Part shown: one piece after another, positions 3,113 through 49,200 of the stretch | How the letters are laid out: each line of letters begins with the position of its first letter | Position numbering within the stretch: position 1 is the first letter of the stretch | Assembly: GCA_017654855.1 (NCBI GenBank) | Contig: CM030335.1 | Location: forward strand, 3,596,001-3,660,000 | Direction: 5' to 3' | Length of the DNA stretch: 64,000 nucleotides | From: Podospora anserina | Taxonomy: Eukaryota | Program-made: the position numbers and the translations under genes | The notes under the pieces: generated by a model | The model's database searches: none | Told to the model about the DNA's origin: nothing | What the model saw: only the letters and a program-made list of their open reading frames with translations

Positions 3113-5857
3113 TTATATCTCATCCTCAAAGAACTTGATCAAAGTTCTCGTCCCACTGACACCCAGCCCCATAAAGGGATAGCAAATATACACCAAGTCG
3201 TTCTTCGTACCAAACTTTTCTCTGAACTCGCTCTTCTGCACCAGTCTCAGCTGCTGCGCAACCGTCCTGTAAGTCTTGCTCAGGATCTTGGCCCGGATGC
3301 CATCCAGGTTTCCGCCCGTGACCATCTCGGGCAGGGCTCCCGCGCCAAACGTGACATGCTGAATGCCGGCCTTGGCCAACATTTGGATCGAGGCCGAGAT
3401 GAGCGCCTCGATCGTGCCGTTGGGGGAGTCGGGGAAGTCCAGAGCAAACTTGATCTGGTACCCGTTCTGCGGCGACAGCTTATGGAGCACGCAGAAGGCT
3501 GCAATCTCCCCTTCTTTGGTCTCGGCCCAGAGATAGCGCCTGTGCTCCATGTCGACCCAGGGTCTGACCTCGGTGATGTGAACCTGTCTACCCGTACGGC
3601 CGGCCTTCCAGTCTTCAATCCTCTTGTCGATCCTCTTGCGCAGCTCCTCGGGGACGGGCTCGTCGATGGGCTGCTCCTTGATGATGACACCGGCGTCTTC
3701 TGCCTGGCGCTCCTTCTTGGCCACCTTCTTCGCATCGGCGATGGTGACACGCTCTTCGGCCACGCAGCTCAACGTGCGCCAGCCGAGCTTCGACCCAAGG
3801 ATCTCTTCAATTTCCGCAGAAACCAATAGCCACAGGGGTCGAAGGTCCTTTTGCGAGCGCATGTGCTTCAAAAAGTCACGAATGACAATGTTGTACTGAT
3901 GTGGGTCACACAGGGGATTACCCATCACGAGAGCGTAGCCGTTCTCTTCAGCGTAGCCAATTGCGGCTCCCGTGGGCTCGTGCCGCCAGACGTGGTACCG
4001 ATCATCAAGCCAGGACGTGTTCGTGGCATCACCATAATTGGCAATAAGCTTCTCAACCGTGGGCATCTCGAGGTTGGGGTAGCCGTGCTCGAAGTCGTAA
4101 GCGTAGCGGATCGTGTCGGCTTCGGGGTGAGGAAGGCGCACAACTTCAGCCTTTTGCTCAGGAAGTGACTTGGGATCGCGGGGGAAGAGCGAGGCGTTGC
4201 GGATGTCGCCCAGGCTGAGCATCAGGAAGATGATGCGCTCAAGACCGATACCGCAGCCTGCGTGAGGGAGCACGCCATACTCGAAGCCCTGGAGGTACTC
4301 CTGCATGCCAAATGGCTCAATGCCCGCCTTCTTCATGCGCTCGACGAGGACATCCGGCTTGTGGATGCGCTGTCCACCGGTCGTAATCTCCTGACCGCGC
4401 AGGAATATGTCGAATGAGTTGGTGAACCGCGGGTCCTCTTCGTCGGGATGGGTGTAAAAGGGGCGGACAGAAGCAGGGAACTTGTCGATGATGTAATAGT
4501 CGGTATTATACTTCTTCTTGATGACCTCGCCAAGACGGATCTCAGCGCGCGTGCTGAGGTCTTCAAGCTCGGAAGCCGGCTTTCCATGGTCGTCGGTCCA
4601 GCCGGACTCGTTCAACAAAGCGATGGCCTCCTTGAAGGTAAAAACTGGGGTCTTCTCCAGCCAGACGAGATCCTCATGGGGGAACCTAGTCTTGATGATC
4701 TCGATCTCTCTGCGGAAACGCGTGTAGATACCCTTGAAGATGCTCTTCATCATGTCGTCGATAATGTTCAAGGCTTCGTGGTAGTCACTGTTGATGGCCA
4801 TCTCCAAATCCAACCCAGTGTACTCCGTCAGATGGCGATGCGTGTTGCTGTCTTCGGCACGGAACACGGGGCCAATCTCAAACACGCGGCCAAAGTCTGC
4901 CGAGATGCTCAGCTGCTTGGAGAGCTGCGGGCTCTGGGCCAGGAAGGCAGTGCGTCCAAAATAGTTAACCTTGAAGACCTCAGCGCCCGACTCTGTGGCG
5001 GCAGGCATGAGCTTGGGTGTGTGAATCTCAATGAAGCCATGGCCCTCGAGCACCGAACGGAAGATGCTGCAGATGCCGCTGTTGATGCGGAAGATGGACT
5101 GGGCGGTAGGTGTTCTGAGGTAGGCGAGACGGTTGGCTACTCTGACTCTGGTGGAGGCCAAGGATTCGAGCTGGTGAGACTCCTCGTCCATCTCAACAAG
5201 GTCGATGGAGAAGACATCGACTGGCAAGTGTTCCTTCACAGGAACAACCAGGTGCATGCTCTCAACAAGCACCTCGAGGTCGTGAATGGAGCACCCCTTG
5301 ACCTCCTCTGGTGGCCTCTGCAGTGTGCCCTTGACGTGGACATGACTCTCAGTCATCAGATGCTCGGCCCATCGAACAAAGTTTTCGGTGATGTGGCCCT
5401 CCTTGTAGGCTACCACACCTTGTATCGTCTCAATCTGTTCGCGGAACACAATGAAGGCTAGCTTGGAGCTGAGGGAACGTGTGTGGTGTATTCTCGCGAT
5501 GAACTCGATCTGTTTGCCGGCATTATCGGGGTTGGCGGCAAGGCGCTGCACGGAGTCGGTTTCCACCAGAACATCGCTAGTCTTGGTGCCATATCGCGCC
5601 GCAATCTCAGGGGGGTCGGTAGAAAGGGCGCGTTCTTCCTCCTCTTTGCGGCGCTGTTGAAAAGACCGTCGCTCCTCCTCCTTTTCGTCTTGCTTGACGC
5701 GTTGCTCAAGGGCCTTCTTCAATTTCTTCTCCTCGCGTTCACTGTCGAGAGCAGCAATGTTGCCAATTTTGGGCTTGGTCATGTGATTCTTTGCCGACTG
5801 GTGGCCGATGATGCGATTCAGAGCCAAGAGAGGCTTTTTGAAGCTGCCTGGCGACAT
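3113..5857 (-). CDS. erdS: Aspartyl-tRNA synthetase fused to a C-terminal DUF2156 (aminoacyl-tRNA transferase) domain; ergosteryl-3beta-O-aspartate synthase-like
   Basis: OB-fold anticodon-binding domain (ARIHHTR..LAFIVFRE), LAQSPQ, motif 2 FRAEDSNTHRHLTE and motif 3 GCGIGLER. About 330 extra residues follow (LIANYGDATNTSW, LVMGNPLC, GYQIKFALDF, GTIEALI, TFGAG, FREKFG), typical of the Fem/GNAT-like DUF2156 fold. First ATG at 5857; the ORF track starts at an upstream GTG. Confidence 0.9.
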   Translation of the reverse strand: MSPGSFKKPLLALNRIIGHQSAKNHMTKPKIGNIAALDSEREEKKLKKALEQRVKQDEKEEERRSFQQRRKEEEERALSTDPPEIAARYGTKTSDVLVETDSVQRLAANPDNAGKQIEFIARIHHTRSLSSKLAFIVFREQIETIQGVVAYKEGHITENFVRWAEHLMTESHVHVKGTLQRPPEEVKGCSIHDLEVLVESMHLVVPVKEHLPVDVFSIDLVEMDEESHQLESLASTRVRVANRLAYLRTPTAQSIFRINSGICSIFRSVLEGHGFIEIHTPKLMPAATESGAEVFKVNYFGRTAFLAQSPQLSKQLSISADFGRVFEIGPVFRAEDSNTHRHLTEYTGLDLEMAINSDYHEALNIIDDMMKSIFKGIYTRFRREIEIIKTRFPHEDLVWLEKTPVFTFKEAIALLNESGWTDDHGKPASELEDLSTRAEIRLGEVIKKKYNTDYYIIDKFPASVRPFYTHPDEEDPRFTNSFDIFLRGQEITTGGQRIHKPDVLVERMKKAGIEPFGMQEYLQGFEYGVLPHAGCGIGLERIIFLMLSLGDIRNASLFPRDPKSLPEQKAEVVRLPHPEADTIRYAYDFEHGYPNLEMPTVEKLIANYGDATNTSWLDDRYHVWRHEPTGAAIGYAEENGYALVMGNPLCDPHQYNIVIRDFLKHMRSQKDLRPLWLLVSAEIEEILGSKLGWRTLSCVAEERVTIADAKKVAKKERQAEDAGVIIKEQPIDEPVPEELRKRIDKRIEDWKAGRTGRQVHITEVRPWVDMEHRRYLWAETKEGEIAAFCVLHKLSPQNGYQIKFALDFPDSPNGTIEALISASIQMLAKAGIQHVTFGAGALPEMVTGGNLDGIRAKILSKTYRTVAQQLRLVQKSEFREKFGTKNDLVYICYPFMGLGVSGTRTLIKFFEDEI

Positions 5858-6982
5858 GTTGGACGGCCAAGGCGGGTGATTGTCGAGATCTTCAGACGCG
5901 CGCGGGGTAGATGCAGCTGGGTTGGGTATGCTCCGGAGAAGTGAGAAATGGGGGATGAGGTTGGGTTCCACAAGATGGGGATGTGATGTGCTTTTGTCAA
6001 GCCTAACAGCTTGACGTCAGCGGTGCAAGCTGCTCTTGATGGTCAAGCACTAGTATAGGTAGCGTACTTTTGTCAAGTAGGCAGTAGGTGGAGAAAGTCA
6101 AAACGAAAAGAGACCAACAATCGAGGATTAAATACGGATCGGGGTGGTTGTGGTTGTGGTGGTCGTGCGTGTTGTGTACCTGCTTTTAGGTACGAAGGTT
6201 CCTGAAGCTGCCAGGGCGGGAATACCTGTTTAAGCACTAAGAATAGGGATGGTTTATTCCCATCAAGCTTTTCGGACGGAGTTCGGCACGCTTTGTCTTT
6301 CCCAGTTCGTGCCTGGACCGCTGTTTGTTTCGCGAAAACAATCAGCATGCCTTTCTCTTGGGCACGACAGCCACTCTCCTTCCTTATTTCTGCGGGCTAT
6401 GTGTCATCGATTCCCCGCCGACGCCAAACACCACGATTTGAGTGGGTGAGTGGCTTCCTGGGTACCACCAGCGGAGCAAGTTGCCCGGTGTTCATGCACT
6501 CTTCCATGTGAAGATGAGGCCCAGGGGCTAGCACCGATGACATCATCTATTCAGTGACGTCAGAGCGCAGTTTAGCATTTGTTTTTTGAGCTGAAACACA
6601 ACAGCAATCCGAGTCACATGATTTGCCAAGGCTGGAGGCTGGGAGGTGTCAACGGTGCCCCGCCATTTGCACAGAAGGCCCAGCCAATTATGGATATGCA
6701 TTTACATGGACCCCGGATTTCTGGAATGACATCAACAGCTCTTGGCTAGGCAGCTAGCTGTTGTCAGTGCTGTTTGAGGCTTGATAGCTGACGCCCTTCA
6801 GCGGCACTGCTTTTTGCTACTCCCATAATTTATCATCGAGCTGTCATTGACTGTTTTCTCCCATTGTTTCAGTAATTAGCAACTGATGAAACCCACACTT
6901 GTGCTATCCAGCGCGCCAAGAGCTGTCAAAGCTGTCCCGAACCATTGACCCCTGTCATCCATATCAACGACATCCATCCACC

Positions 6983-8101
6983 ATGTCCAAGATCCCCACC
7001 GTCGACGGCATTCCCATCCCCAACATCAACCTCATCGGCACACCGGCCCAGACACCCCAACCGACCGAGGAGGACAAAAAACCGTTAGAAACCGCCAAAG
7101 ATGCCGTTGGATCGCCCCCGTCCCGCACCTGGCTCAAAATATCGGCTAATTGGTGGAGGTCGCTGCAGTACATTGGCATGTCACTGCACTTCCTGGCCAA
7201 CCCGAAGCCTCCAAGCCCGGCCTTTACACATACCATTCCCTCTACCATCTCCGACAAGAAGGGCAACTTGACCCTTCATTTTTACACCCCTGAAGGGTAT
7301 GACAAGCGAAAAAAGACCAACCAGCTCTTCCCCGCCGTTATCAATTTCCACGGCGGAGGCTTCACCATCGGCGCCCCCACCGACGACGCCCGCTTCGCCC
7401 GCTTTGTCCTCGAAGAATGCAAGGCTGTCTATGTATCAGTCGAGTATCGTCTCAGCCCAGAGTACCCCTTCCCGGTAGCAGTCCAAGACGGCGCCGACGC
7501 CCTTCTCTACCTCATCCGTCACGGCCCAGAGCTATACATTGACCCTCACAAGCTCGCCACATCTGGCTTCTCGGCCGGTGGAAACATCGCCATAACATCT
7601 ACCATTTGCTTGTCTGAGCACCTCAAGACTCTGTCCGCGCCAGTCCCGCCGCATAACATCCGCGCCATCGCGACCTGGTACCCCATCTGCGATTACACCG
7701 AGTCCCGCGAGGTCAAGCGCGCGAGATGTGTGCGGCCGGACCAAACCCTTCCTGCGAACCTCACGTCGCTGTTTGACGCCTCGTATCTCTACCCTTCTGG
7801 AGTTAGCCTCGCCAGTCCGATATTATCGCCTACCAAGGCTTCCGACACACTGTTGAAGGAGGCGATTCCCGAAACGGTTATTTTCTACACGTGCGAGTGG
7901 GATATGCTCCAGTATGAAGGGGAGGAATTGGCCAAGAGACTGGGGAGAGCGCCGATAAACAAGACGGTCAAGCACAAGATGATCCCTGGGGTGCCGCATG
8001 CGTGGGATAAATCGCCTGACCCGACCAAGCCGGCGGCGGGCTCGGAGGAATTGTACAAGGAGTGCTGTGTGTATCTGAAGGAGGTGTTCAAGGGGAACTG
8101 A
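6983..8101 (+). CDS. erdH: Alpha/beta hydrolase (HSL-like, Abhydrolase_3); ergosteryl-aspartate hydrolase-like
   Basis: HGGGF oxyanion motif, YRLSPEYPFP, GFSAGG nucleophile, CEWD and PHAWD (Asp/His). Transcribed divergently from the AspRS-DUF2156 gene. The symbol rests on this synteny. Confidence 0.8.
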   Translation: MSKIPTVDGIPIPNINLIGTPAQTPQPTEEDKKPLETAKDAVGSPPSRTWLKISANWWRSLQYIGMSLHFLANPKPPSPAFTHTIPSTISDKKGNLTLHFYTPEGYDKRKKTNQLFPAVINFHGGGFTIGAPTDDARFARFVLEECKAVYVSVEYRLSPEYPFPVAVQDGADALLYLIRHGPELYIDPHKLATSGFSAGGNIAITSTICLSEHLKTLSAPVPPHNIRAIATWYPICDYTESREVKRARCVRPDQTLPANLTSLFDASYLYPSGVSLASPILSPTKASDTLLKEAIPETVIFYTCEWDMLQYEGEELAKRLGRAPINKTVKHKMIPGVPHAWDKSPDPTKPAAGSEELYKECCVYLKEVFKGN

Positions 8102-8280
8102 CTACGCTACACGAGGAGTTGTAGGATAATAGTACATACTAGATAGATGGCGTTAGGGGAGGGGGTTGGCATGACAGGTGATGAATTGATGAGGGAGGTC
8201 CCATTCTTTTTGTAACTATAAACGAGTCTAACAGTTTTACCAAACCATGTAATAACCACCATCCACCCAACCAAGCTCAC

Positions 8281-8721
8281 TTAGTACGGATCAATCGTCC
8301 CACACCACTTTGCATTCACGTCATCGAACCCCCACGTCTTCTCGTACTGCTGCTCGTAGGTGAAGCCTGCCCTGCCGAATCCACAATTTACTCCGATGTC
8401 GACCCAGGCGTCATAGACTTGGTCCCAGAGGCAGCCCTGGGGGCGCCGCTGGTCTGAATCACAGATGTAAGCGCGGGTGTTGTTGTAGACCCACGACACT
8501 TTGGTCCAGGGGGTCACGATGCCGCGGCAGTAGCCTATTAGGGAGCGGGCGGCGACTATCATGGAGGGGATGTCGAGGATGGTGTCCTTGCAGCCGATTT
8601 CGTAGCGGAGGGGGCGGGGGATGGGCGTGGTGTTTGGGGTGGAGGTGGGAGTTGGGGGGAAGGTGCTGGCGGTGGAGAGGGCAACTGTCGCGGGGATGAG
8701 AAGGAGCAGGAGGAGGTTCAT
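8281..8721 (-). CDS. Small secreted Cys-containing protein
   Basis: 146 aa, hydrophobic signal peptide MNLLLLLLIPATVALS, Pro/Thr linker, 6 Cys in the mature part. Confidence 0.7.
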   Translation of the reverse strand: MNLLLLLLIPATVALSTASTFPPTPTSTPNTTPIPRPLRYEIGCKDTILDIPSMIVAARSLIGYCRGIVTPWTKVSWVYNNTRAYICDSDQRRPQGCLWDQVYDAWVDIGVNCGFGRAGFTYEQQYEKTWGFDDVNAKWCGTIDPY

Positions 8722-9344: not shown

Positions 9345-12300
9345 TCAAACTATGGCAACCGCTGCTACCCTCTCCACAACATCCTCCATAACCTCATCGT
9401 CTTCCTCATCGTCGTAATCCTCATATTCCCTTCCATTGTACCATCCGCCGTGCTCCTCCGACATGTGGTTGTAAATCTCATGGCGATCCACCTCCTCGCC
9501 ACACTTGAAGCACCAATGCGTGTTGCAACCACTGACAATACACGTCATGTGATCACATCCAGAAGTCTTTTGTGTTCCTACACCACACCCTGGACATGGC
9601 TTGAAGTCAAACACTTCGGCTGTGAGTGTGCAGTCCTCGCACTTCCAGTTCTCGACGTCGACTGGTGCTCCGGCGGCACAAACCCTTTCCATGTACCTCT
9701 TGGCTGAGCTGCAGGAGGAACACCAGGCGAAGATCCAGCTGCCGGCCTCCTCGACTGCATTCTTTAGCCCCTCCAAGTATCTCACACCCTCCGGCAACTT
9801 GACCTTCGTCGAAGGCTGTCTGCGGCAGAACGGGCAGCTGAGAGCAGCGACGTTGATGATCTTGCCGACTCGATTGATGCCGTACCACGAGTCAGCACAA
9901 TCGCCGCAGATCAGCTCGCCACATCCCTTCCGACCACAGGCCAAACGGAGATCCTTCTTCCTGTGGTCGCTGAAGCAGAGAGAGCAAGTTCCAGCCTGGA
10001 CCCGGCGCGAGTCGACCCATCCCTTCACGGCCTTGACAAGCTCATCAACATTGTGCACCTTCTTGCCTCGGGCCTTCAAAGCCACCTTGTCAGAAGCGGG
10101 TAAGACCTGCACCTTGTCCGCAAAGTGCTCTCTTCCGTGGGCCAAATTGGAAACGATAAAGAACACCGACCTGCCGCCGAAGACGACGTTTGCCGGGATC
10201 ATATCGTCGTCATTCTTGACGAGCCAATCCTTGCCGTTCTCGTTGGCGAGCGTCCGAATGCTGAGCTCCTCCTCCTCGATACGATTCTTCTTGCCACCTT
10301 CGCAGGGAGCGCAGATGAATGAGCTCTCATCGAAGCCTTCAGGCCGGTACTCGGCAGGCCATATCACCCTGTTGGCACAAATCGAACAGCTGACGCACGG
10401 CGCAGTGGTCAGTTGGTCGTACTTGGAATCTGACTTCGAGACAAAGCTCCTCTGCCGACAGAACCAGCATTTAGGCCGTACGTTGAGCTGGTTGGGGAAG
10501 TAGACCACATACTGAGCCCGGCAGTCGTTCATGGAACACTCCACCCAGCTGATCTCGGTGGCGCCATTGTCGTCCTTGGAGATGTTATCGTGTACCATTC
10601 GATGGGCGCGTCCCCTGTCGGTATCTTCCCTGGCGCTGTGGCACAGACCACAGATTCCCTCGTTGCCCATGATGGTGACGGAGCGAGGAAACTGGCAAGA
10701 CTTGCAGACAGCCACAGGGCCCATGTGAGCGCGTGCCTTCTCGGGCGTCCATCCTATTTTGGTAGGAACGATGGTGTCGAGATTCATCTCCAGAAGCTTG
10801 TAGCTCACCAAACCCTCAAAGAGTTCGGCATCCTCCTTGCTGAGGACTGCACCTGGGCGCTTCTTGTTGGCCTCGAGCAAAAGGTTAAGACAGTTGGAGT
10901 TCCACGTCTCGGGAATATCAAGAGTGTTCCAGTTGTCCTTCATGAGGGAGAGCTCAGTAAATGCTGCGTCTTCCAGTGCCTTGATCCCCATCCTCAATGT
11001 GAGAGCAGCGACCAGGGCGGCCGGACGGAGGGCCAGCATGGTACCAGGCAGCACAGTATGCAGCAAAATTCTCCAAAACATCCTCTTGCGCTCCGCCTTG
11101 GCCAAAGCGAGCGGAATCCGGGGGGGCTCAGCTTCGCCCAGATCTTGAACATGGGCTGGGAGGTCGTCTTTGGAAGCCACAAACGTGAGCCGGGTCAGGA
11201 CCTTTCCAAGTCGGCGCAGAATCCTGTAATCGCAAGATCGACCAATCTCGAGTAGCTCGTCCCGAGTAAAGACCATATCTCGGCTGTCGTCGTCGTTCTC
11301 GTTCTTGCCAGCGAACCTGAGCGTTGGATCGAGAAACACGCAGGGGTACTTTTCACCATCTCCAACTTCTCTGATGATGCTGACAATTTCGCCCTTCATG
11401 TCGTACGACTCCTCCAGCCAGTTCTTCATCCGCGACTTTTGCTCGGCGTCGGGTATCCTATCAACGTGGAACCCAAACTTGGTGATAAGTCCGTCTCTGA
11501 CGGGGTTGGACCGGTCGTTGCAGACTGATCTCCATAGAGTGCCGAACACAGGATTGAGGGCCATGACGGTCACATCTGTCTCGATGATCTCCCGCAGCTG
11601 AGCACACACCAGGGTCCGGTATTCTTCGTCATCCATGTATCTCTTTGCAAAGTCCTGGACCGCTCCACCGTTCCGGACATCGACAATCTTGGCGATGTCG
11701 CTCTCATTGACCCAGGCATTCGTGAGATTGCACCTGAGAGCCTCGGTAACGTCCTTGTTCGCGGAAACAGGAAGCCACCTGTTTCCGTTGATATCCGTCT
11801 CAGACTCCACCGTCTCGATGCCCTTCAGCGTCCCATACTGGTTCAAGTAGGCCAGCTTCCGATCACCCCCCTGCCCCTTCTTCTCCGTGACAGCACCCAG
11901 CCAACCAAGCAAAATTCCCACCGTCAGCTGCGAGATATCTTCCGCCCTGGGCGACAAAGTGTCAAAACTGAAGCACCTCCCACCCGTGACCTGCGACAAG
12001 AACGAATACATGGCCGCCACCCCCAGCCCAGCCCGGCTCTGATCCACCCTGCACTTGTTCTTGAACGTCCTCGCCGTCACACAAAACACCTGCGCCCCGC
12101 TACGCCTGAGTTGCTCACAAGCCGAGACCCAATCCTTGAACTTCTCCCCGCCCTCCACCTTCCCCAACGCCGCCTGCTCCAGCTCCCAAGCCTTGTTATC
12201 CAATATCCTCAAGTGGGGCGACTCATCCGCATACCAAATCACCACCGTCTCCCTCTTGACCCCTTCCTTGGCATCTCTCCCCATGACTTCGCACGCCCAG

Positions 12301-12707
12301 TGCGCCCCCGTCTTGCCCGCCTCCGGCGTGGAGTAGCCCCCTTGGACCTTTAGACGTTGAACCCACCCGAGGAGGTCTTTCTTGTCCTGGTCTTGGCCGA
12401 ACCACCCACTGAACTCGGTGACCCTCACGTGGTCGTTGACGTAGGCATGTTTCTCGGCCGACCACTCGACGCAGTCGTGGTCGCGGTAGGCGAGCACCCC
12501 GATGCGGGAGAAGGCGCCGGTGAGGGTGGAGATGCGGACGATGGACTGGAGGGAGGAGTGGAGGGAGACAAGGAAGGTGGTCATGGAGGCTGTGGCGTCG
12601 GTGATGATTAGGAGGTCATATTCGAGGCTGTTGGTGTTGTTGTTGTTGTTGTTGTCGGTGGCTGCCGCCGCCGCTGCAGGCGTGGCAGTGTTGTGGACGG
12701 TAGCCAT
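9345..12707 (-). CDS. vWA-domain, multi-zinc-finger, RBR/Ariadne-like ubiquitin ligase
   Basis: N-terminal LLIITDATASM (MIDAS-like), LAYRDH, GGYSTPEA, WYADESPH. Central CxxC clusters. C-terminal RING (CSLC..CGRKGC..ICGDC..CPFC) and RING2-like CPGC..SGCDHMTC..C..HWCFKC. Intronless ORF; ATG at 12707. Confidence 0.8.
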   Translation of the reverse strand: MATVHNTATPAAAAAATDNNNNNNTNSLEYDLLIITDATASMTTFLVSLHSSLQSIVRISTLTGAFSRIGVLAYRDHDCVEWSAEKHAYVNDHVRVTEFSGWFGQDQDKKDLLGWVQRLKVQGGYSTPEAGKTGAHWACEVMGRDAKEGVKRETVVIWYADESPHLRILDNKAWELEQAALGKVEGGEKFKDWVSACEQLRRSGAQVFCVTARTFKNKCRVDQSRAGLGVAAMYSFLSQVTGGRCFSFDTLSPRAEDISQLTVGILLGWLGAVTEKKGQGGDRKLAYLNQYGTLKGIETVESETDINGNRWLPVSANKDVTEALRCNLTNAWVNESDIAKIVDVRNGGAVQDFAKRYMDDEEYRTLVCAQLREIIETDVTVMALNPVFGTLWRSVCNDRSNPVRDGLITKFGFHVDRIPDAEQKSRMKNWLEESYDMKGEIVSIIREVGDGEKYPCVFLDPTLRFAGKNENDDDSRDMVFTRDELLEIGRSCDYRILRRLGKVLTRLTFVASKDDLPAHVQDLGEAEPPRIPLALAKAERKRMFWRILLHTVLPGTMLALRPAALVAALTLRMGIKALEDAAFTELSLMKDNWNTLDIPETWNSNCLNLLLEANKKRPGAVLSKEDAELFEGLVSYKLLEMNLDTIVPTKIGWTPEKARAHMGPVAVCKSCQFPRSVTIMGNEGICGLCHSAREDTDRGRAHRMVHDNISKDDNGATEISWVECSMNDCRAQYVVYFPNQLNVRPKCWFCRQRSFVSKSDSKYDQLTTAPCVSCSICANRVIWPAEYRPEGFDESSFICAPCEGGKKNRIEEEELSIRTLANENGKDWLVKNDDDMIPANVVFGGRSVFFIVSNLAHGREHFADKVQVLPASDKVALKARGKKVHNVDELVKAVKGWVDSRRVQAGTCSLCFSDHRKKDLRLACGRKGCGELICGDCADSWYGINRVGKIINVAALSCPFCRRQPSTKVKLPEGVRYLEGLKNAVEEAGSWIFAWCSSCSSAKRYMERVCAAGAPVDVENWKCEDCTLTAEVFDFKPCPGCGVGTQKTSGCDHMTCIVSGCNTHWCFKCGEEVDRHEIYNHMSEEHGGWYNGREYEDYDDEEDDEVMEDVVERVAAVAIV

Positions 12708-29873: not shown

Positions 29874-32800
29874 TTAAAATCCCCATTCTTCCATCCACTT
29901 CCTCATCATCCGACCGTTGATCACACCCATCCCCGCCATCGCCTTGCTCTTCGCCACGGCGTGTCCCGTCGCGAACCTCACGTCGACCTGCTTGCCCTCC
30001 TCTCCGCCTGTGCTGGCAGCAGGTGCCTTGTTTAGTCCCTCGAAGAAGTCGAGGAGTTTCAACGCGGGCATCTGCTCGATCTGCTCATCGGTGGCTGTGG
30101 CGCTAACGCGCTTCAGCTCGTCGACCCAGTCGGTGTAGGGGATTATTTTGATGTTGCGGGTGGGGGAGTAGAACTCTTGGATTCCGGGGACGAGGAAGGA
30201 CCAGGAAACTGTGTGGGGGTTGACGAGGTTGAAGGTTTGGACGGTGGTGGTGGAGCGGTGGTAGGAGGAGAGGGAGAGGTCGACGACGGCGCGGGCGGCG
30301 AGGTCGGTGGGGACCCAGTCGATGGGGGAGGGGAGGGAGGAGGGGAGGTGGAGGGTTGCGGTGGAGGTTTTGAGGAGGGAGGGGAGCCATTCTTTTGGGC
30401 AAAGGTTAGGTGTCTACTCACGGAGGGGAGTAGGGGGAAAAGGGCGGCACACCTTGTCGGTTCCAGACACCGGACTTTTCGGCTGCTCCAGCGAGCTGGC
30501 CGACTCGGAGGACGGCGACCGAGTTGATGTGGCCTGCGTGGAGGGCGTTGGATAAGATGGATGCCGCGACGTGTTTTGACTCGCCATATCCCTGTTTGGC
30601 CGGGAGGCTGTTGTCCGGGTCCCAGTCTTCGCCGATGATGATCTCGCTGCCGTCTTCGGGGATGTGGCGAACGGCAGCCCAGTTGAGGATGCTTGCGACG
30701 GAGGAGATGAACACGATGTGAGGTTTGCGAGGGGAGCCTGAAGAAAAGTCGGCGCACTGCTTTGTGCCGGCGATGACGGGCTCAAAAGCCTCGAGTGGGC
30801 TGTTGAAGTTGACGGGCCAGGCATTGATGATGATCATGTCGGTTTGCTGCTGGAGAGAGGCGAAGTCATGAGGGAACTCGAGGCCAAAGTTGGGCGCCGA
30901 GGTTTCACCTGTGAAGTACTGGACTCGGGATGGGGAGATGGAACCAAGACCACGATCGTCAAAGGACTTTTGTTGACGCTCTCGGGCGCTCACAGAGCGA
31001 TTGAGGCAGAAGATCTGGGATATGTCCGGTGTGTCTAGGAGCTCTTTGAGAATGTAACTTCCCAACGATCCGGTCGAGCCGATGAGGAGGACGTTGAAGG
31101 TTGCGGGCGGTGACTTGGGAGGTGAGGGGGGTGATACCAACTTCGGGAAGCGCGAGTGGCGGTAGATCATGGCTGACATGCGCTCTTCGCGGGAGACCGC
31201 ATTCTCAGGGCTTTGGTCTTTTTTAGAAGCACTGACTGCCTTTGCTAACTGGACGACAGTCGGATTGTCATAGACTGTTTTGGCGTTGCATTTAAGGCGA
31301 GACGAAGTCAAGATACGGCTAAGCTGCAATGCCTGCAACGAGTCGGCGCCCAGTTGGAAAATATTGGCATCATCAGTCAGCCTTGCCGCCCGACTTCCGA
31401 GGACAGAGCGGACGGTTTTCCGAACAAGTTCTTGAACATCCTCATTGCTTTGGCCTGCTGCATCAGATTCCTCGACAGCCATTTCCTGCGTCTTGTAAAG
31501 CTGCTCGATCTCGGTTTCGTACAACTTACACGTCGCCTGTCTCATCATGGAGCCTTTGGAAGCTCGTTTGAACGGCTTCTCTGGCTTGGTCAACATAATT
31601 GTTGACCTCCACACTCTCGCATACGCAGGATACTCGGCGTTGGCCTCCTCGATCAACGGCCAGATCTTGTCGATAAACTCTTCCTTGTCATCACCCTGAT
31701 GATCCTTTGATGGCTCAATCAGTATCCCAGCTTGGAAATGTCCCGCGCCAAGCATCAAAGCCCCCTGAACCCACGGATGGCCATCAACAATCTTCTCAAA
31801 CGCCACCGGGTTGACCTTTTCTCCGTTACTCAAGACAATGATATCATCCAGCCTCCCGACGAACTTCCACAGCCCCTTCTTGGTGGGATGCTCCTCAAAC
31901 AGGTCATGAGTCCGCCATTCTTGCAATTCCGGAAAGTTCCAAAAGGCAAACTGGTACTTGCCATCTGGACGCCGCTTGATTACCGCCTCTGCCAAGTTGG
32001 GATTCTCCTCCGTCGGCTCCATCACCATGCCAGCCTCTAGGTTCCACTCGAAATACTGCCAGTCTTTGGGGTCTTTGAGCCGGAGCGTAGGCATGAAGAA
32101 GGCCTCGGTGGATCCGATGCCGTTGTAGAGGGAAGTCACCTCTGAGATTTGGTTCCCGCACGCTTCTGCCAGAGGGGCGCCACCGTAAAAGACAAAGTCC
32201 AGAGTGGAGAGGACGGAGAGGCCAGTCGGGAGGCGGCAGATGTCTTCTATCATAGAAGGGGCCGAGGCAAGGGCGCTGGGCTTGGTCTTGACGATACATT
32301 CCAGGATGAGCTCCGCTGTGGGTGGCTTGTCGGCTGGGAGGAGGACGATGGGCTTTTGGTAGTGGAGGGCACGGAGGAGGAAGTTTATGCCAAAGATGTG
32401 GAAAAAAGGAGTCACGGATAAGACGAGGCGGGTGAGGAGGAGAGAACAGTGGGTGCTGGTGCGGCCTGGCGGGGTGGGGATCGATGTGATCGTCTCAAAG
32501 GTGGAAAAGACGCCGGCCTTGATGTGGATGGGCTTGGGGAGGCCGGTTGTGCCGCTTGTGTGGAGGATTATGAGAGTCTCATGGTCTGAGTAGCTGGCCC
32601 GTCCCTTTGGAGTTGTCGAAGCGGGGGTGAACGGCATGAGAAGTTCGTCGACGGTTGGGATCTGGAGCATTTGGAGGCTCGGCATGGATGTCGACAGCTT
32701 GGCGATATGAGAAAAGAATTCCCCCGAGCAAAGAAACTTTGAGCATTTTGTTGTCTTGAGGAGCGCCAAGTTCCCCTCTTTTGAGTTACGGGGCGATGGT

Positions 32801-33075
32801 GAAAGGGTCCTGTAGCCTGCCTTGAGGGCGCCGAGAATGACAAAGGGGTACCGGATATCATTGATACCCATGTAAGCAAGCACCTCCTCAGTCTCTCCTG
32901 GTCCAAATTTCCGGACGATGAAATCAGACGTCGCGTCGACGGCATTTTTGAGGAGGGAAAAGGTGATGTCCTCCCAGCCGGCTTCTCCTTGGAATGAAGT
33001 CGCGGGGGTTTTGGCCCACACGTCGTTCGGTTTGTCTACGGCCAGACGGTCGACAAGGACGGTAGGGGACAACAT
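29874..33075 (-). CDS. NRPS-like A-T-R carboxylic acid reductase (about 1046 aa)
   Basis: A domain (ILHTSGTTGLPKPI, GSTE, GRLDDIIVLSNGEKVNP), carrier domain (FQLGADSL, Ppant Ser) and reductase domain (LIGSTGSLG, NAWPVNF, GYGESK, RVGQLAG). Intron 30452-30392 joins to EWLPSLL..IDWVP..WMEEWGF*. Confidence 0.92.
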
Positions 33076-33485: not shown

Positions 33486-35393
33486 TCAAGGCTTTTTGCA
33501 CAAGCGCCCGTTCTGAGTCGGCAGCCCCGGCAGCTGTCCTTCTACCTCCCAGTCCTCGCTTCCGACAGCTGTATGCGCGTAGAACAAGCCGGTCGGATCA
33601 TACTTCTTCTTCAGCTGGAGCAGTCTTGGATAGTGCGAGCCGTAGAAAGACTGTTGCCAGTTCGGCTCATTGATATCACCCTCGGACAGGTAGCTTCCCG
33701 CCCCTGGGCTCACCTGTCTCCACCTCGCCATCCAGTCATTCGTTAAAATGTTGCTCTGCGCTTGGATGACGGCAGGGCTGGCATCGGCAGGCCAGGCAGC
33801 TGCGAGAATGAAGAAGCCGGTTGTCTCTCTCCAGGCGGGGTTGACACTGTTGGTCTGGTTCACGGCTGAGTTGGGGGCAGCACGGATGTTGTAGCCAATC
33901 AAGATACCGCCTGCCTCGACGGCATACCGCACAGCAGCCATCGTTTCGTTCCTCTTGGTTGGGTTGATGAAGTTGTCTTTTGGGAAGAGCCGAGATGCGG
34001 CGCGGTTGTCAGCCCCTCCCACGTTCTCTGGGGGGAAAGTGCCAGAGTGTGCTTGGTATAAGCTGGGGTATTCGTTCCAGACAGGATCAATAGAAATTCC
34101 GAGATTGGCGAGGTCGTCCAAGAAGGGCTGGATAAGAGGTTGGAATTGAGCGAGCGTCATGTTGCCTCCCCACAGGGGGTTCATGCTGAAGAAGAACTGG
34201 CCCGGGCCAATATTCACAATGAGCCAGTACCCGTAGGCGCCGACCGCAGTGAAGGTGTCGAAATAGGTTGTGTATGCTTCCACACCAGCCCAGAAAGTGT
34301 CCGCTGTGACATTGGAGGAGGTGCCAAAGACGAAGCCGAGAGTCGAAACGGGGATCTGAGGGTAGGCCTTGACAGTCACCGAGGTGACCACGCCATAGGT
34401 GCTGCCACCGCCTCCTCGGAGAGCCCAGAACAGATCGGGGTACGAGCTTTGGCTGGCGGTGACGAAACGACCGTTGGGAAGTACGACGTCAAGCGAGAGA
34501 ACTTGGTCGGCACCCATACCTACAAGCGAAGACATGGGGGAGTGGCCACCTCCGGCGATATACCCGCCCGCCATGCCCACAGTTCTGCACTCACCGCCAA
34601 CGACGGTGACGTTGTGTGCCTCGGCAGCTTGGTAGACTTCCTCTGTCTCTACCCCGGAACCGAGCTTGAGAGCTGGCCCCGAGTGTCCGTTGCAGGTGTA
34701 ATCCGGAATGTACTGGATATCTTTGAGCTTGTGAGTCCAGACAGACAGCGAACCAGCACCCATAGACTTGTCGGCGAAATCATGACCCGTGTTCTTCACC
34801 ACCAGCCGGATGTTGGTTGCGCGAGCAAAGTTGAGTGCCAGCTGAATCTGGGATACCTTGGTAACGGCGACGGAATAGGAAGCATACCCTCCCAAGGTGC
34901 AGTTGTCGTAGATCTGGCTGGGATGATCCAAGGGCATACAGGTTTGCCCTTGCCAGAGCGGGAACATGGCCGAAGTTGGGTCCTCGACATGGAGCTGCGG
35001 TCTGTTCCAGTTTGTTTTGACGTATTCACACTGAGCGGCGTCGTACTGAGGCCAGTCGCTGTAGCATGGAGCGGCGAGGGGAACTGTCTTGATGAGCGCG
35101 CCCCCGAGCGTCAGGTTGAGGAGGTTCCACACCGAGTTGGATGGCCAGAGGGGATCTCCGGGGAAAGTTTTGCATCTCGGTCTTGGGATGCCACCGATGA
35201 TGTTGGAGCTCGCCGGCGTGCCCTCGACGGGACCAAAGTCAAAGAGCTCTGCGTTGTTGGTGCTGTTGACGGCCGCTTTGGTCAAGACATTGTTCTCCCA
35301 GGAGAAACGGGAGGGGCATGTTGCCGTCGTTTGGTCAGCTAGAACAGTTAGTACAGCTGCGACAGTTGTCGCCCGGAGGTTGACTGTGACCAT
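33486..35393 (-). CDS. Secreted FAD-linked oxidoreductase (berberine-bridge/VAO-type)
   Basis: Signal peptide from MVTVNLR. Motifs RLVVKNTGHDF (flavinylated His), GGECRTVG, GGGHSP, DLFWALRGGGG and the C-terminal BBE motif YPRLLQLKKKYDP. Confidence 0.92.
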   Translation of the reverse strand: MVTVNLRATTVAAVLTVLADQTTATCPSRFSWENNVLTKAAVNSTNNAELFDFGPVEGTPASSNIIGGIPRPRCKTFPGDPLWPSNSVWNLLNLTLGGALIKTVPLAAPCYSDWPQYDAAQCEYVKTNWNRPQLHVEDPTSAMFPLWQGQTCMPLDHPSQIYDNCTLGGYASYSVAVTKVSQIQLALNFARATNIRLVVKNTGHDFADKSMGAGSLSVWTHKLKDIQYIPDYTCNGHSGPALKLGSGVETEEVYQAAEAHNVTVVGGECRTVGMAGGYIAGGGHSPMSSLVGMGADQVLSLDVVLPNGRFVTASQSSYPDLFWALRGGGGSTYGVVTSVTVKAYPQIPVSTLGFVFGTSSNVTADTFWAGVEAYTTYFDTFTAVGAYGYWLIVNIGPGQFFFSMNPLWGGNMTLAQFQPLIQPFLDDLANLGISIDPVWNEYPSLYQAHSGTFPPENVGGADNRAASRLFPKDNFINPTKRNETMAAVRYAVEAGGILIGYNIRAAPNSAVNQTNSVNPAWRETTGFFILAAAWPADASPAVIQAQSNILTNDWMARWRQVSPGAGSYLSEGDINEPNWQQSFYGSHYPRLLQLKKKYDPTGLFYAHTAVGSEDWEVEGQLPGLPTQNGRLCKKP

Positions 35394-36259
35394 GTTGAGG
35401 CCGCTGAGAGGATTATGAGTGAAGCTATTAGGGGGGGTTGAACTCACCGAACCAACGATGTCGGCCTTTATAGGAGTTGTCCCCCCTCCGCCCGAAGAAT
35501 CCCAGCCAAAGCACAACCTGCAGCACAATGGCATGGTGTTGAAGAACCAACCATACCGAAAATACTACCCAAGACTGGACTAACGCTGCCACAAGGCCCC
35601 GGACTGGCTACCGGCCCAGACAGGGACCCCTTTCCCCGCAGGTCACCCCCTTGCCGTTAACAGGGGCAGTCCACTGGGAACCAATTGGGAACGATGTCCG
35701 CTGCAGTCGTTCACCGCACGGCGGTGGCCGGAATTTCAATAGAGCTGCTGACTTGCATTCGCAGGTACAGCACAAGGCCTATAACGGCATTGGGCCAAAT
35801 TTCCACGTGAGATATCAGCCGGTGCCGGGTTACACGACAGAGCATTCTACGCCACTTTCCCGGGTCGCCGATAGGATGTTGGAGGGTGTAGGTTTTCCAA
35901 GCGAGGAAAATAATCACAAACCAACATCCCGTCTCGCCGGTCCTTTGTCAGCTGGAAAAGTGGTCCGAGTCGAATCTCCGGTTCTTGAGCGGCACCATGT
36001 GCATGCCTTATTGGATTCGCCCTCAATGGAATTAGAAGATAGGTGTATGACATATTCGAGGAAAGGTAAGAAAGAGTGTCTGATCGATTTACTAGAACGG
36101 AAACGAACATTGGAGACAGTACGGGCGGTGTACAGAAAATAGAAAATCTCCCTTTCCTCCGCAAAGCTTGGCCAAACTGCTCGTGTACTTGCTGACCCTC
36201 CAGATTGCCACACTTCCAATAGCTTCCTGCACTTCACCATGGCCTTTACATGACGGGAA

Positions 36260-43560: not shown

Positions 43561-45873
43561 TCAGTCACCCAACCGCGAGCCCGGTCCTCCTGGGAGTGTC
43601 AGATCGATCAGGTCTCTTCCCGGCTTCAACCTGTTGCTCCCCGAGAACGTGGCCTCCAACAAGTGAAAGCCCCCAGATAGATTTCTGGGCAACTCAAACG
43701 TCACTCGTCCCTCGTCCTTTTCCGTCAACACATACTCCAGCTCAACTTGCTCTCCAACTAACCTCACCACACCTTCCACCACCTCTCCCGGTCCTGGTGT
43801 CACCGAGACCGATATAAACATCCCATCATCCGAACTCCCATTTCCTGGCGCAAACATGGCCCTCACCAACGTCGGTCCAGTAGGCGGCTCCTGCCATCCA
43901 TGCTTCGTCATCCCCCACTCCGGTTTATGTTGATAGCAAGGCACACACCCGGGCCAGTACGATCCGTTCTCCGGCACCCCTCCACTGACTGGATTTCTAT
44001 ACCCAAACCACATTCTCTGAATTTCTGGCCAAGAAACATACCTTTCCCTCCCTCCCATAAACCCAACTTCTCTTTCCCCTTCCATCTCATTCAGCCAGAG
44101 ATCCGGCGGGTACTGCCTAACCAAGTCTCTGGGAGGAGGCTGATCCGGCGCGTCCTTGTCTCTCACCTCCACACCTCCCCAGCCTTCTTTCCAGCTATTC
44201 ATTGTCCAGTAAAACTCATCAATCGTCAAACTCCACAGCTTCCAGCTCCCATTCTCATCTAGCACCATTTGGTCATGGTACATGCCCCCTCTGATCGTCC
44301 CTGCAGTCTTGTCGGTGGCTGGTTGCAATAGCCTCGCTCTCAAACTCGCTGAACGCCCGTCTTGGGAAACGTGAATCACCGGCTGCGGCCTCCAGTGAAA
44401 GGATATAGCAGATCGGGTGGGACGAGCGGACGTGCCGTATGCTTGTGTGCATGCCTCCAGGACTCTCTGACGGGTGTGGTAGAATCCGGCAAACGGTGAC
44501 TCTTTGTTGGCATATGGGTGGTGGATGGCGGCCATGAGCGAGCAGGCGGCACCGTCGATAAAGTCGATATAGAAGCCATAGGCGTTGGAGATGGATTCTG
44601 TGCCTTCGTAGCCATATGACCTTGAAAGGCGACGGGATAGCTCTTCGAGGGAGTCTGCCGTCGCTGTCTGAGCGATAGGCTTGTTGGTACCCCTCGTGGT
44701 GTAATCCAGCAACACTGGATCAACAGTACTCGCTGGCATAACTCCCCCGTGCCCCCAACCATCAGAGTAATTCGCCACAACCAACGGTGCGATCGTGACA
44801 TTGAGAAACTGCCAGATCCCATTCCGCCTGACAAATGAGCTTTGGAAGAAGCTAAACCGCCACGATGCCGTGCCCTTCTCCTGGTCCCCAACCAACCCAA
44901 TCTCGATCCCTCTCGCATCCGCCATCCTCTCCGCATCCGGCACGTTTTCGTCAACCTCCTGCCGGATCTTGACCACCGTATCAAAAATGAGATGCTCGTT
45001 CAGAACCCCCTGCTTCAACCCCTCACCCCCCATCCACCTCTCCAACCCCTCCTTTATCCCCCCGGGCCCCTCAAAAACTCCCACATTATCCACCCTCAAC
45101 ACCCCCCAACTATGACTCCCAAACAGCTCCCCCACCTCCCCCCACAGCCTCCGATCGACATAATACCCCCAAGCATGCTGCAAGTTCCTCACCTCATCCT
45201 CATCGTTCAAATCCTCTATTCTCCTCCCCAACCCGACACCCTCCGGTCCCTCCCCAACCACACCCGCAACCCCCCTCGGAATCGGCACCCCCGCCTCCTC
45301 GGCACTATAATGAAACTCAGGCACCAACCCGAAATCCCTCCCCCCAACATTCCTCCACCCACCCTCATAACCCCCCTCGTAAAGCTCATGATACCTCATC
45401 ACCCCTATCTCCCACCTGCCCTCCTGCGTGACAGAGTACTCATTCTCCCATATCCCCCCCCTCATCCTCGTGGCCCCCTTCCCGTCCCCCTGAAACCTCC
45501 ACCCGTTCCACCTCCCTTCCGCCGTCTTGCCATCCACAGCTAGGTTCACCAGCGGTGTGGCGAGAACCATCGTGTCGAGTGATCCAGGCAGGCGGCCGTT
45601 CATGTCCCCCGCGTCCGCCTCAAGCCATGTCTTGATCGCCTCGGGACCCTGGATGGAGGTGTTGCCCCAGAGTAGAGTACCCTCAGGAGCGAACAGCGCC
45701 GCCATGTCAGCGTAGCGGCCGAACTGGGCTAGCTGCGCAAACGTTGAAGTTACATCCTTGATCTCGCGGAGGGACTCGATGCGAGAGACATTGTGGGCTA
45801 GTTCCTCGACTGTCACCGCGTCACACACGCCAGCCCCGGCGGCCGTCCACAAAAGCAGTCGTGATAGCCTCAT
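43561..45873 (-). CDS. Secreted protein with three tandem SnoaL/NTF2-like domains and a possible C-terminal Ig-like domain
   Basis: Signal peptide MRLSRLLLWTAAGAGVCDA. Three repeats start ESLREIKDVTSTFAQL, DEDEVRNLQHAWGYYVD and GYEGTESISNAYGFYID, each ending in a GxW-type strand. Intronless. Confidence 0.8.
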   Translation of the reverse strand: MRLSRLLLWTAAGAGVCDAVTVEELAHNVSRIESLREIKDVTSTFAQLAQFGRYADMAALFAPEGTLLWGNTSIQGPEAIKTWLEADAGDMNGRLPGSLDTMVLATPLVNLAVDGKTAEGRWNGWRFQGDGKGATRMRGGIWENEYSVTQEGRWEIGVMRYHELYEGGYEGGWRNVGGRDFGLVPEFHYSAEEAGVPIPRGVAGVVGEGPEGVGLGRRIEDLNDEDEVRNLQHAWGYYVDRRLWGEVGELFGSHSWGVLRVDNVGVFEGPGGIKEGLERWMGGEGLKQGVLNEHLIFDTVVKIRQEVDENVPDAERMADARGIEIGLVGDQEKGTASWRFSFFQSSFVRRNGIWQFLNVTIAPLVVANYSDGWGHGGVMPASTVDPVLLDYTTRGTNKPIAQTATADSLEELSRRLSRSYGYEGTESISNAYGFYIDFIDGAACSLMAAIHHPYANKESPFAGFYHTRQRVLEACTQAYGTSARPTRSAISFHWRPQPVIHVSQDGRSASLRARLLQPATDKTAGTIRGGMYHDQMVLDENGSWKLWSLTIDEFYWTMNSWKEGWGGVEVRDKDAPDQPPPRDLVRQYPPDLWLNEMEGEREVGFMGGRERYVSWPEIQRMWFGYRNPVSGGVPENGSYWPGCVPCYQHKPEWGMTKHGWQEPPTGPTLVRAMFAPGNGSSDDGMFISVSVTPGPGEVVEGVVRLVGEQVELEYVLTEKDEGRVTFELPRNLSGGFHLLEATFSGSNRLKPGRDLIDLTLPGGPGSRLGD

Positions 45874-46273: not shown

Positions 46274-49200
46274 TCATACATATGTTACACACGGCCCAAA
46301 GAAATCCACAATCTCCCTATTGGAGTCGACCTTCACCCAGTCGGGCAAGCCGTCCGGCCACGAGGGCCTGCCAGACCGAACCTCCTCCTTCATTTGCTTT
46401 TCGCGAGTGACCGCCATAGTTTCGTTCGTCGACATATTCGAGCTTGCTGGCGATTCTTGGTCCACAAACATTGGCGAACTGCTAGGGTAGGGTGTATCAC
46501 CCTCATCAGAGTTCAAGTCCTTGCAGGTGTTTGAAATTTCAAACTTTTTGGCAATGCCTTCAAACAACACCACGTCAGAGGCGCCAGGTCTGAAGGCCGT
46601 TGGATTTGTGGAAGGCATTTGAAACCGCGGCCAGGCCGCACCGGGCGTTTTCCGTATGGCTGAAGTGTTCGCTGCACAAAGCTCGTCCAGACTGGGCAAG
46701 TCGGCCTCATCGTCCGTCTCTGAATGGTGAGGAGGTTGTGCGGCTGTACGGACTTCATTTGCTCGTTTGGGCTTGGACTTTGTTATTACATTCTGCTCCG
46801 ACTTGGTGGTAGCCGGATCGCCTTCATCATCGGTATAGGATGAAAGATCGATACACTCCAGATCCTCCTCTGTGAACCCGTACGCATTCCAGTCTACTAC
46901 GACAGACCGAACAGGCGGGCGGATGCCTGGTGCCTGTTGAGTGGCACCGGGCCGTGATACCGACTCAATCTTGGGCCGCTTCCTATCGCCCGAAGCTTGA
47001 GGGGAATTCTTAGAACCATCCCAGGCCTCCTCGGCCGTGCGCTTGACCTTTGGTTTGGGCGGTGCCCGCTTTCGTGGCTTGTCAAGTCCCTCTTTGCAAC
47101 ATCTGTGAGTGCATGGCTTGCCCGTCTTTGTGAGAGTCCCACCCGCACAGTTATGATTACACTGCCACTTTCCGCTTGGAAGCTGGACTGGGGGGGATGT
47201 ATCGGACTCGGGTTGAGAGGAACCCTCTTCCTGTGCCATCTCGACCAACTCATGGATTCCTGGATACTGTTCCGCCTGAGCGTCTTTTTGGCCCTCCATC
47301 ATAAACCTGGGTGCTTGGATAGATGGCGTGGTGAATGATGACTGTGGGCGCAGTGCTAACCGAGCGGCCGCCTGCTCAGCGGCGAGAATGAAGTCAGAGT
47401 CGTCAATACCACCATCGTCCAGCTCGTCCATTTTATCAGCATCATTGCTGCCATCAATCGTCCGTGGTTGAGTGAACTTGGCTGTCGCTGGCGGAGCCCA
47501 GCTCGGGGGCACGGTGGAGAAAGCGGCTTGCTTGGGAAATGCTGAGGCAGGAATGTTGTGTTTCAGTGTCTTGGATATCATCGTCCCAACAATCTCCTCG
47601 CAAGTAAAGTGACACACAATGTCGTCATCAACATTTTGGAGACCAACCCAGAACTTCAATTCGTACCCTGTCTCTTTGCTGACCTCCAGCTTCCTCATGC
47701 TGCCTCGCCAAAAGAACGAAAGAGTCCCGCTGGTAGTTTCGGCCAGGAAGTTGATGTCAGGTGTCTTCTTCTTCCAATACGGTGGACCGAGTCGATTCAA
47801 ATACCGTAGGTTAGCCCTAATTTCCACCCCAACGGTGGCGCCTGTTGGATTAGGTTGAGACTTGTGGCTGACTAGCTCCAGATCGAAGCTCAACCGGGGA
47901 AACTTTTCAAGAGAGCTCTTGATAGTCATTCCGAAGGGGGTCTGCCGAGCCATCAATCTCTCAATGTCGACGCTGTCCATGTCGGCGAGTTCCAACACTG
48001 TCCGGATGCCTTTGCTGGCAAGCTTACGCATCCCAACGGGCCCAATGCTGGGTACCTGGGTCAGTTGTGTCACCCGACCTTCCCATGACTCTGCAGCGAG
48101 GGCTCTCGCAAGCTCGAGGGCATTCTTCATGCCAATCGCATCATAGTCGTTTCCTTTGCAGTCAATCACGGCGTGGACAAGGCGGTTGAGTCGCTCAAAC
48201 ACGATTTTGCGCTCCAAGACCAGTTGACGTCGAGCCTTGGCTGCATCGGCCGAGTCGGGGTATTGAACGCTTCCCAAATGGGCCTGAACCATCAAGGAGA
48301 TCTTGTGCCATGTTTGCGTGACCGCTTCCTTGATTGGATAGACGATGAGGGGGGACTGGTTCATCTCGCGAAACAAAGGCCTCTCGGCGGGCTTGAAACG
48401 AAACTCTTTGAACTCGCTGGCTTGTGAAAGGATGGTGAGCTGTGGCCATGGGGTCAGCGCGCCGTGGTCAACATAATTCTGTGAAGCCATGTGGGATCTA
48501 TACCAGTGCGCCCATCTTGACAGCCTTGGGAATCTGCAACAGCATCTTCATTGTGGAAAACTCAACCATATACTTGGACATGGCGCGGCCGTAGTAGGTT
48601 GACTTGAATGTCTCGTTGTCGGTAACACACTGGGCATCTTGCAGTTGCTTAATGTCGCGCTCGCATATCTCTTCCAGCTTGGCGTCGATCTGGCTGGGAT
48701 TGCAATTACTGCCAGTCAAGTGGTAAAAGCTTGGGTTGCGTCGAAGCCGGACGCTCAAGAACGTGCCGCTAAGCCACTTCTTTGCAGACGCGAGATCGTG
48801 GATGGTGCCCAGGCCTATCTCGGAGTTGAGGTGTTCGATCAGGTTGAGATGAAGCGTACTCTCGAGAATTTCTTGTCCGGACACCATCTTTTCGTACCGT
48901 GCCTTGTTGCCGGCCTTGGTCAGGATGATGGCAGTGGCGCTGTCATCAAATTGGGGGCGTCCCGCTCGACCTAGCATTTGCATCACCTCGAGATCAGAGT
49001 ACTCCTGAAGCTTGTCATCCGCGTAGCCCATTGTTCCTTTCAACACAACCGTGTGGCATGGCAGGTTAATGCCAACGGCCAATGTCGACGTGCAACATAT
49101 GACACCTAGTTCTCCCTTGAGAAATGACTGCTCAACAGCACCTCGATCTTGAACATCGAGACCGGCATGGTGAAATGCCACACCCAATTTGACAATCTCC

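Follow-up and report, generated by a model that had tools for sequence, protein, structure and literature searches.

In a 64-kb window of Podospora anserina DNA (assembly GCA_017654855.1, contig CM030335.1, positions 3,596,001 to 3,660,000; coordinates below count from the first letter of this whole stretch), two divergent genes very probably (at a probability of about 0.9) constitute the erdS/erdH pair of this fungus of the P. anserina species complex (Sordariales), orthologous to the characterised pairs of Aspergillus fumigatus, A. oryzae, Neurospora crassa and M. oryzae. The putative ergosteryl-3beta-O-L-aspartate (Erg-Asp) synthase gene, erdS, is a single-exon coding sequence of 914 codons on the minus strand (3113..5857, stop codon at 3113-3115), and the putative Erg-Asp hydrolase gene, erdH, is a single-exon coding sequence of 372 codons plus stop on the plus strand (6983..8101). 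Both proteins are encoded by uninterrupted open reading frames (ORFs), and their start codons lie head-to-head on opposite strands, separated by 1125 bp (5858..6982). An original prediction, made from the letters of this DNA, had proposed such a pair with the two genes about 1.1 kb apart, and this layout agrees with what we found.

The ErdS/ErdH system was discovered in 2020 and is reported to be conserved across Dikarya (PMC7334510), while a 2026 paper describes the cryo-EM structure of ErdS and implicates the system in hyphal growth, sporulation, germination and stress tolerance (PMC13219428). The original prediction had called the system known elsewhere, which is correct, and its physiological role poorly understood, which these reported roles have made partly outdated. 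The Podospora locus adds nothing new in kind to this known system, and its only mildly unusual feature is a clade-fixed threonine, Thr755, in ErdS. Its value is one of annotation: the labels given by the sources conceal a lipid-modifying function, with ErdS entered as 'aspartate--tRNA ligase dps1', 'Probable aspartate--tRNA ligase, cytoplasmic' or 'uncharacterized protein', and ErdH as 'esterases and lipases' or 'hypothetical protein'. The original prediction had warned that the synthase is easily mistaken for a plain aspartate--tRNA ligase.

Domain architecture and functional residues of the probable ErdS

The 914-aa ErdS protein joins three parts in one reading frame. Its N-terminal extension (residues 1-110; 5528..5857, minus strand) contains a Lys/Glu-rich helix at about residues 37-80 and is the counterpart of the A. 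fumigatus ErdS helix for which clamping of the tRNA elbow is reported (PMC13219428). This is followed by an anticodon-binding OB fold (residues 121-203; 5249..5497, minus strand; PF01336 tRNA_anti-codon, E 1.3e-06, 28.6 bits against a cut-off of 27) and a class II catalytic core (residues 237-561; 4175..5149, minus strand; PF00152 tRNA-synt_2, E 2e-74) with the motifs QSPQ (308-311), FRAE (332) and GLER (538). The OB fold and the core with its QSPQ signature make up a complete eukaryotic-type class II aspartyl-tRNA synthetase (AspRS). The C-terminal part (residues 611-893; 3179..4027, minus strand) is an aminoacyl-tRNA transferase domain of the double-GNAT DUF2156/LPG_synthase_C type (PF09924, E 3.8e-20, 72.6 bits against a cut-off of 27.5), within which lie a basic helix (K714, K715, R717), the proposed general base H760 and R879. 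These Pfam domains bear out both the predicted fusion of a complete AspRS to a C-terminal extension and the expectation that the C-terminal third would match DUF2156/LPG_synthase_C; the extension had been put at about 330 residues, but the AspRS part ends at about residue 561-565 by the Pfam core and the alignment to yeast AspRS, which leaves about 349. No membrane domain was detected in ErdS by Pfam or in the alignments to structure chains, the N-terminal 565 residues being AspRS.

Among solved structures, the best matches were 9w9f, 9w9e and 9w9g, whose 947- and 862-aa chains are titled 'Aspartate--tRNA ligase, cytoplasmic'; residues 41-912 of the Podospora protein aligned to 9w9f with E 1.3e-296 and 989.6 bits. 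We take these three entries to be A. fumigatus ErdS because the chain numbering agrees with the residues named in PMC13219428, 9w9f fitting the published N677, E712, C728, E731, R749, K750, W785 and H795. The predicted orthology to ErdS is supported by this match over the whole length. The next-best chain, yeast AspRS 1eov, reached 421.6 bits (E 6e-125) over residues 112-565 only, and the canonical AspRSs of yeast and human alike scored about 420 bits, compared with 990 for ErdS, with nothing aligned past residue 565. In addition, a 915-aa AspRS-DUF2156 protein of N. crassa OR74A (P0362) was 76% identical (696/915 columns) over the full length with a single gap. From its organism, length and architecture, this protein would be the NCU-numbered ErdS of PMC7334510.

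Functional residues were mapped by hand through the pairwise alignment with the 9w9f chain (A. fumigatus numbering is marked Afm), and column counts refer to 121 sequences, namely the window protein and the best 120 of 3433 matches. The QSPQ signature was invariant (121/121). Eight of the nine residues compared in the CCA pocket and catalytic site (Afm W785, R789, K790, G791, Q793, H795, F913, R914 and K916) were identical, i.e. W750, R754, G756, Q758, H760, F878, R879 and K881, where H760 corresponds to the proposed general base Afm H795 and R879 to Afm R914, the arginine that stabilises the transition state or oxyanion. The sterol pocket was kept in full (5/5), with S615, W616, D618, Q801 and K803 standing for Afm S644, W645, D647, Q836 and K838, mutation of which is reported to lower ErdS activity (PMC13219428). 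Among the tested transferase-site residues listed for these two pockets, the replacement of Afm K790 by Thr755 was the sole departure. The basic alpha(+) helix between the GNAT halves (Afm R749, K750, R752, R753) was basic at three of the four named positions, K714, K715 and R717 being kept and K710 and K711 also being basic; Afm R753 is replaced by Q718, as in 114/121 sequences.

The adjoining hydrolase and conservation of the gene pair

The 372-aa product of the second gene is a PF07859 (Abhydrolase_3) protein (E 3.6e-40) with HGGG at 123-126, GFSAG at 195-199 and a Ser197/Asp307/His339 triad, in keeping with the predicted HGGG/GFSAG hydrolase. HGGG, S197, D307 and H339 were invariant in 121/121 sequences (the window ErdH and the best 120 of 968 matches), and the triad is spaced by 110 (Ser-Asp) and 32 (Asp-His) residues, compared with 124 and 30 in A. 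fumigatus ErdH numbering. By its published definition, ErdH belongs to PF07859, has a Ser-Asp-His triad (Afm S153, D277, H307) and is encoded divergently from the adjoining erdS (PMC7334510); the Podospora protein, with its family, intact triad and orientation, conforms to this definition as it stands for A. fumigatus, A. oryzae and N. crassa, as predicted. One match, a JGI protein (P0095) labelled 'putative ergosteryl-3beta-O-L-aspartate hydrolase' by its source, was 56% identical over 99% of the query. The nearest solved structures were ordinary family-IV esterases (E 4.6e-23 and weaker), so that the protein receives no specific name from structure matches. The earlier description of the hydrolase as divergent applies to its orientation but not to its sequence, which is that of an ordinary family-IV/HSL-type esterase rather than an aberrant one.

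The adjacency of the two genes recurred in many Sordariomycetes. In nine close relatives the ErdS and ErdH proteins bear consecutive GenBank accession numbers, and consecutive locus tags were found in Thermocarpiscus australiensis, Thermothelomyces fergusii, Cercophora sp. LCS_1 and Anthostomella pinea. In a further hand count, both matches lay on equally long contigs, some only 12.6-40 kb, in 36 species, equal length serving as a proxy for the same contig. According to PMC7334510, erdH is nearly always linked to erdS and missing where erdS is missing. Within the 64-kb window, a tblastn search for a second copy of either protein returned their own genes only, all other matches having E > 0.4.

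Alternative readings

Several observations weigh against the orthology proposed here, among them two in the tRNA-handling parts of ErdS. At the column of Afm K790, 106 of the 121 sequences have K, 6 have R, 4 have T, 3 have N, and one each has Q and D; Thr755 occurs in all 12 full-length members of the 90% cluster of the window protein (Podospora, Triangularia, Apiosordaria and Cercophora samala; a thirteenth member, a 407-aa fragment, lies outside this count). The N-terminal xSKxxLKKxx motif is partial, reading EEKKLKK with EE in place of SK and LKK at 46-48; in the same helix, Afm K65 aligns with K44, and Afm R69 and S77 are not kept in the hand mapping. The motif is also described as lacking from M. 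oryzae ErdS (PMC13219428). In A. fumigatus ErdS, the K790E exchange reportedly lowers the Erg-Asp/PE ratio from 1.42 to 0.40, and Glu is given as the natural state of this position in the low-activity M. oryzae enzyme (PMC13219428). Because K790E has this effect, the activity of Podospora ErdS may be reduced through Thr755. On this basis the pair could be orthologous and its synthase naturally attenuated or retuned, the clade-fixed Thr755 lowering Erg-Asp synthesis or altering how the aminoacyl-CCA end is held, with Erg-Asp present at most in traces. We consider this unlikely, although it is the most serious of the alternatives: Thr is neutral rather than acidic, the basic R757 remains nearby, and all other pocket residues are conserved.

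Of lower standing still are two readings that would deny one of the proteins its part in sterol aminoacylation. The PF07859 family is large and rich in fungal paralogues, the hydrolase finds its best matches among solved structures in ordinary esterases (E 1e-23 to 1e-20), and none of the characterised ErdH proteins (A. fumigatus, N. crassa, M. oryzae) appeared in the best 120 of 968 matches, all of which would suit a generic carboxylesterase that merely sits beside erdS and is inactive on Erg-Asp. Such a chance neighbour is very improbable given the erdS-hydrolase adjacency in nine close relatives, in at least four more distant species and in the 36 same-contig pairs counted by proxy, the reported near-constant divergent placement of erdH beside erdS and its absence without erdS (PMC7334510), and the match that its own source labels ErdH. 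Likewise, a housekeeping cytosolic AspRS whose C-terminal appendage is inert would fit the database names of the ErdS relatives and the reported complementation of the yeast dps1 deletion by A. fumigatus ErdS (PMC7334510); moreover, a separate canonical AspRS was found neither within the 64-kb window nor, from Podospora, among the best 120 of 7952 matches to the AspRS domain (residues 100-565, length-restricted). We nevertheless find this reading scarcely credible, as conservation of the transferase domain with a solved and mutationally dissected ErdS extends over its entire length, the proposed catalytic His and Arg included. Every ErdS-containing fungus inspected in PMC7334510 and PMC13219428 is reported to have a separate AspRS, a coexistence that these papers explain by tRNA sequestration on ErdS, and by analogy a second, translational AspRS presumably exists in Podospora. 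A literature search, which covered the papers themselves, returned none on Podospora erdS/erdH. With these points on the other side, an orthologous erdS/erdH pair remains the reading we prefer.

Comparison with known systems and proposed mechanism

A. fumigatus ErdS (AFUA_1g02570; PMC7334510, PMC13219428) shares with the Podospora protein the three-part architecture of N-terminal helix, AspRS and double-GNAT DUF2156 domain, together with QSPQ, both catalytic residues (His and Arg), the residues of the sterol pocket and the basic helix. It differs in length (947 aa compared with 914), the additional residues being mainly N-terminal (Afm 62 aligns to residue 41), in K790, R753 and S642, which are T755, Q718 and N613 in Podospora, and in the SKxxLKK motif, which is only partly kept in the latter. 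The N. crassa pair (NCU007082/NCU007081 in PMC7334510) belongs to the same order, Sordariales, has the same divergent arrangement and is reported to have been characterised genetically (PMC7334510); unlike Podospora ErdS with its Thr755, however, N. crassa ErdS matches Afm K790 with a K, which is directly followed by one additional residue.

More distant systems share the transferase fold. ErgS, the ergosteryl-glycine synthase (PMC8913301), has a paralogous transferase domain, specific for sterols, in which a basic helix is essential, but is a freestanding DUF2156 protein without a fused aminoacyl-tRNA synthetase (aaRS), using Gly-tRNA made in trans, whereas the Podospora protein has its AspRS fused; ErgS is reported absent from N. 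crassa (PMC8913301). Bacterial MprF/aaPGS systems have in common with ErdS the PF09924 fold, the diversion of aminoacyl-tRNA to a membrane lipid and an adjacent gene for removal (PMC7334510). MprF, however, has a flippase domain and uses phosphatidylglycerol as acceptor, whereas ErdS lacks the flippase, has the sterol 3beta-OH as acceptor and carries its aaRS in cis, and ErdH is described as lacking a secretion signal, unlike the hydrolases neighbouring bacterial aaPGS (PMC7334510). The original prediction had cast the locus as a eukaryotic counterpart of MprF-type lipid aminoacylation, which is apt for fold and logic but not for membership: the locus works like MprF, yet it stands outside the aaPGS group.

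From the orthology we infer the enzymatic activities of both Podospora proteins. The AspRS half of ErdS would activate L-Asp with ATP and charge tRNA-Asp, which the N-terminal helix would hold clamped while the CCA end swings into the C-terminal double-GNAT domain. There, His760 would deprotonate the 3beta-OH of ergosterol and Arg879 would stabilise the transition state, yielding ergosteryl-3beta-O-L-aspartate. The esterase ErdH, through its Ser197/Asp307/His339 triad, would hydrolyse the ester back to ergosterol and Asp, such that the two enzymes would jointly determine how much Erg-Asp is present at steady state. Erg-Asp is reported to be undetectable in N. crassa and M. oryzae of wild type unless erdH is deleted (PMC7334510, PMC13219428), and it is a reasonable expectation that Erg-Asp in Podospora would become visible only upon erdH deletion, as in N. 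crassa.

The phenotypes published for ErdS and ErdH mostly concern conidiation and conidial germination. To our knowledge, P. anserina has no asexual conidia that germinate. We tentatively raise the rather improbable idea that an intact, conserved pair here points to another primary role in Podospora. This could lie in senescence, sexual development, the germination of ascospores or the membrane homeostasis of hyphae, and the enzyme, with its clade-fixed Thr755, might be retuned to a low flux. Being genetically tractable, Podospora is suited to probing roles of Erg-Asp beyond conidiation and the effect of the natural K-to-T change in the tRNA-CCA pocket.

Gene models, leaders and public contigs

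In both genes, no in-frame ATG lies between the upstream stop and the annotated start codon; the N. crassa relative is alignable to ErdS from residue 1, and the ErdH relatives span 98-100% of its length, the N-terminal 100 residues included. The intergenic region (5858..6982) contains both 5' leaders. In A. fumigatus, the natural erdH-erdS intergenic promoter is reported to drive both genes (PMC13219428), and by analogy the Podospora region presumably acts as a shared promoter.

In four public runs from four studies, whose library type is a guess and whose contig ends we do not take as evidence of transcripts, promoters or expression, one contig per run covered erdS (from 2883-2940 to 6158-6407) and one covered erdH (from 6750-6869 to 8181-8278), all collinear with the window and free of joints and indels. 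None of these contigs covered about 6408-6749, extended past about 2883 or 8278, or bridged the intergenic region. Their sole substitution was T3116C, present in all four runs, by which the final erdS codon reads Met instead of Ile; between the window ErdS and the P. anserina S mat+ entry, the last residue is the only difference. Because Met914 is found in 10 of the 12 full-length members of the 90% cluster and also in N. crassa, Ile914 looks like a strain-level variant.

The leaders themselves contain short upstream reading frames. In the erdS leader (5858-6407, minus strand), upstream ATGs lie at 6407 (7 codons), 6263 (8 codons) and 6348 (91 codons, ORF 6073-6348), all three out of frame with erdS, and the erdH leader has one at 6886 on the plus strand (20 codons). 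The contigs from two of the public runs are long enough to take in some of these ATGs.

AspRS-type proteins among the matches

The best 120 of 7952 AspRS-domain matches consisted of short or partial ErdS-type proteins and of canonical AspRSs, the latter mostly basidiomycete and 48-51% identical. Among these matches, the closest canonical, non-fused AspRSs came from Cryptococcus, Kwoniella, Rhodotorula and relatives, not from ascomycetes. Also among the matches listed were short AspRS-DUF2156 proteins of about 780-816 aa from Fusarium, Coniochaeta, Cryphonectria and Coniella; since these are just 51-55% identical, they suggest that some Sordariomycetes have a second lineage of ErdS type, more distant than the first.

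Neighbouring genes

The genes flanking the pair have no evident link to sterol aminoacylation. They encode, all on the minus strand, a 348-aa protein with hydrophobic stretches and no Pfam match (957-2003), a 146-aa protein, also without Pfam match, with an N-terminal hydrophobic stretch resembling a signal peptide (8281-8721), and a 1120-aa protein with C-terminal IBR and RING-like matches only (9345-12707). Farther along the window, an 885-aa AMP-binding/PP-binding/NAD_binding_4 protein (30418-33075, minus strand), with the architecture of a nonribosomal peptide synthetase (NRPS)-like carboxylic-acid reductase, adjoins a 682-aa FAD_binding_4 and BBE oxidase (33486-35534, minus strand), and the two may form a small secondary-metabolite gene pair. 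A 770-aa ORF (43561-45873, minus strand) contains three tandem SnoaL_4 domains (E 9.5e-55, in three stretches), an unusual repeat of a small fold. Two adjoining ORFs at 46274-49826 (minus strand) carry DEAD/Helicase_C/SNRNP200_wHTH and Sec63 domains and have the appearance of exons from a single Brr2/Ski2-like helicase gene. Finally, a 1075-aa ORF (58855-62082, minus strand) combines FAD_binding_1 and NAD_binding_1 with a cytochrome b5-like heme/steroid-binding domain in an atypical order.

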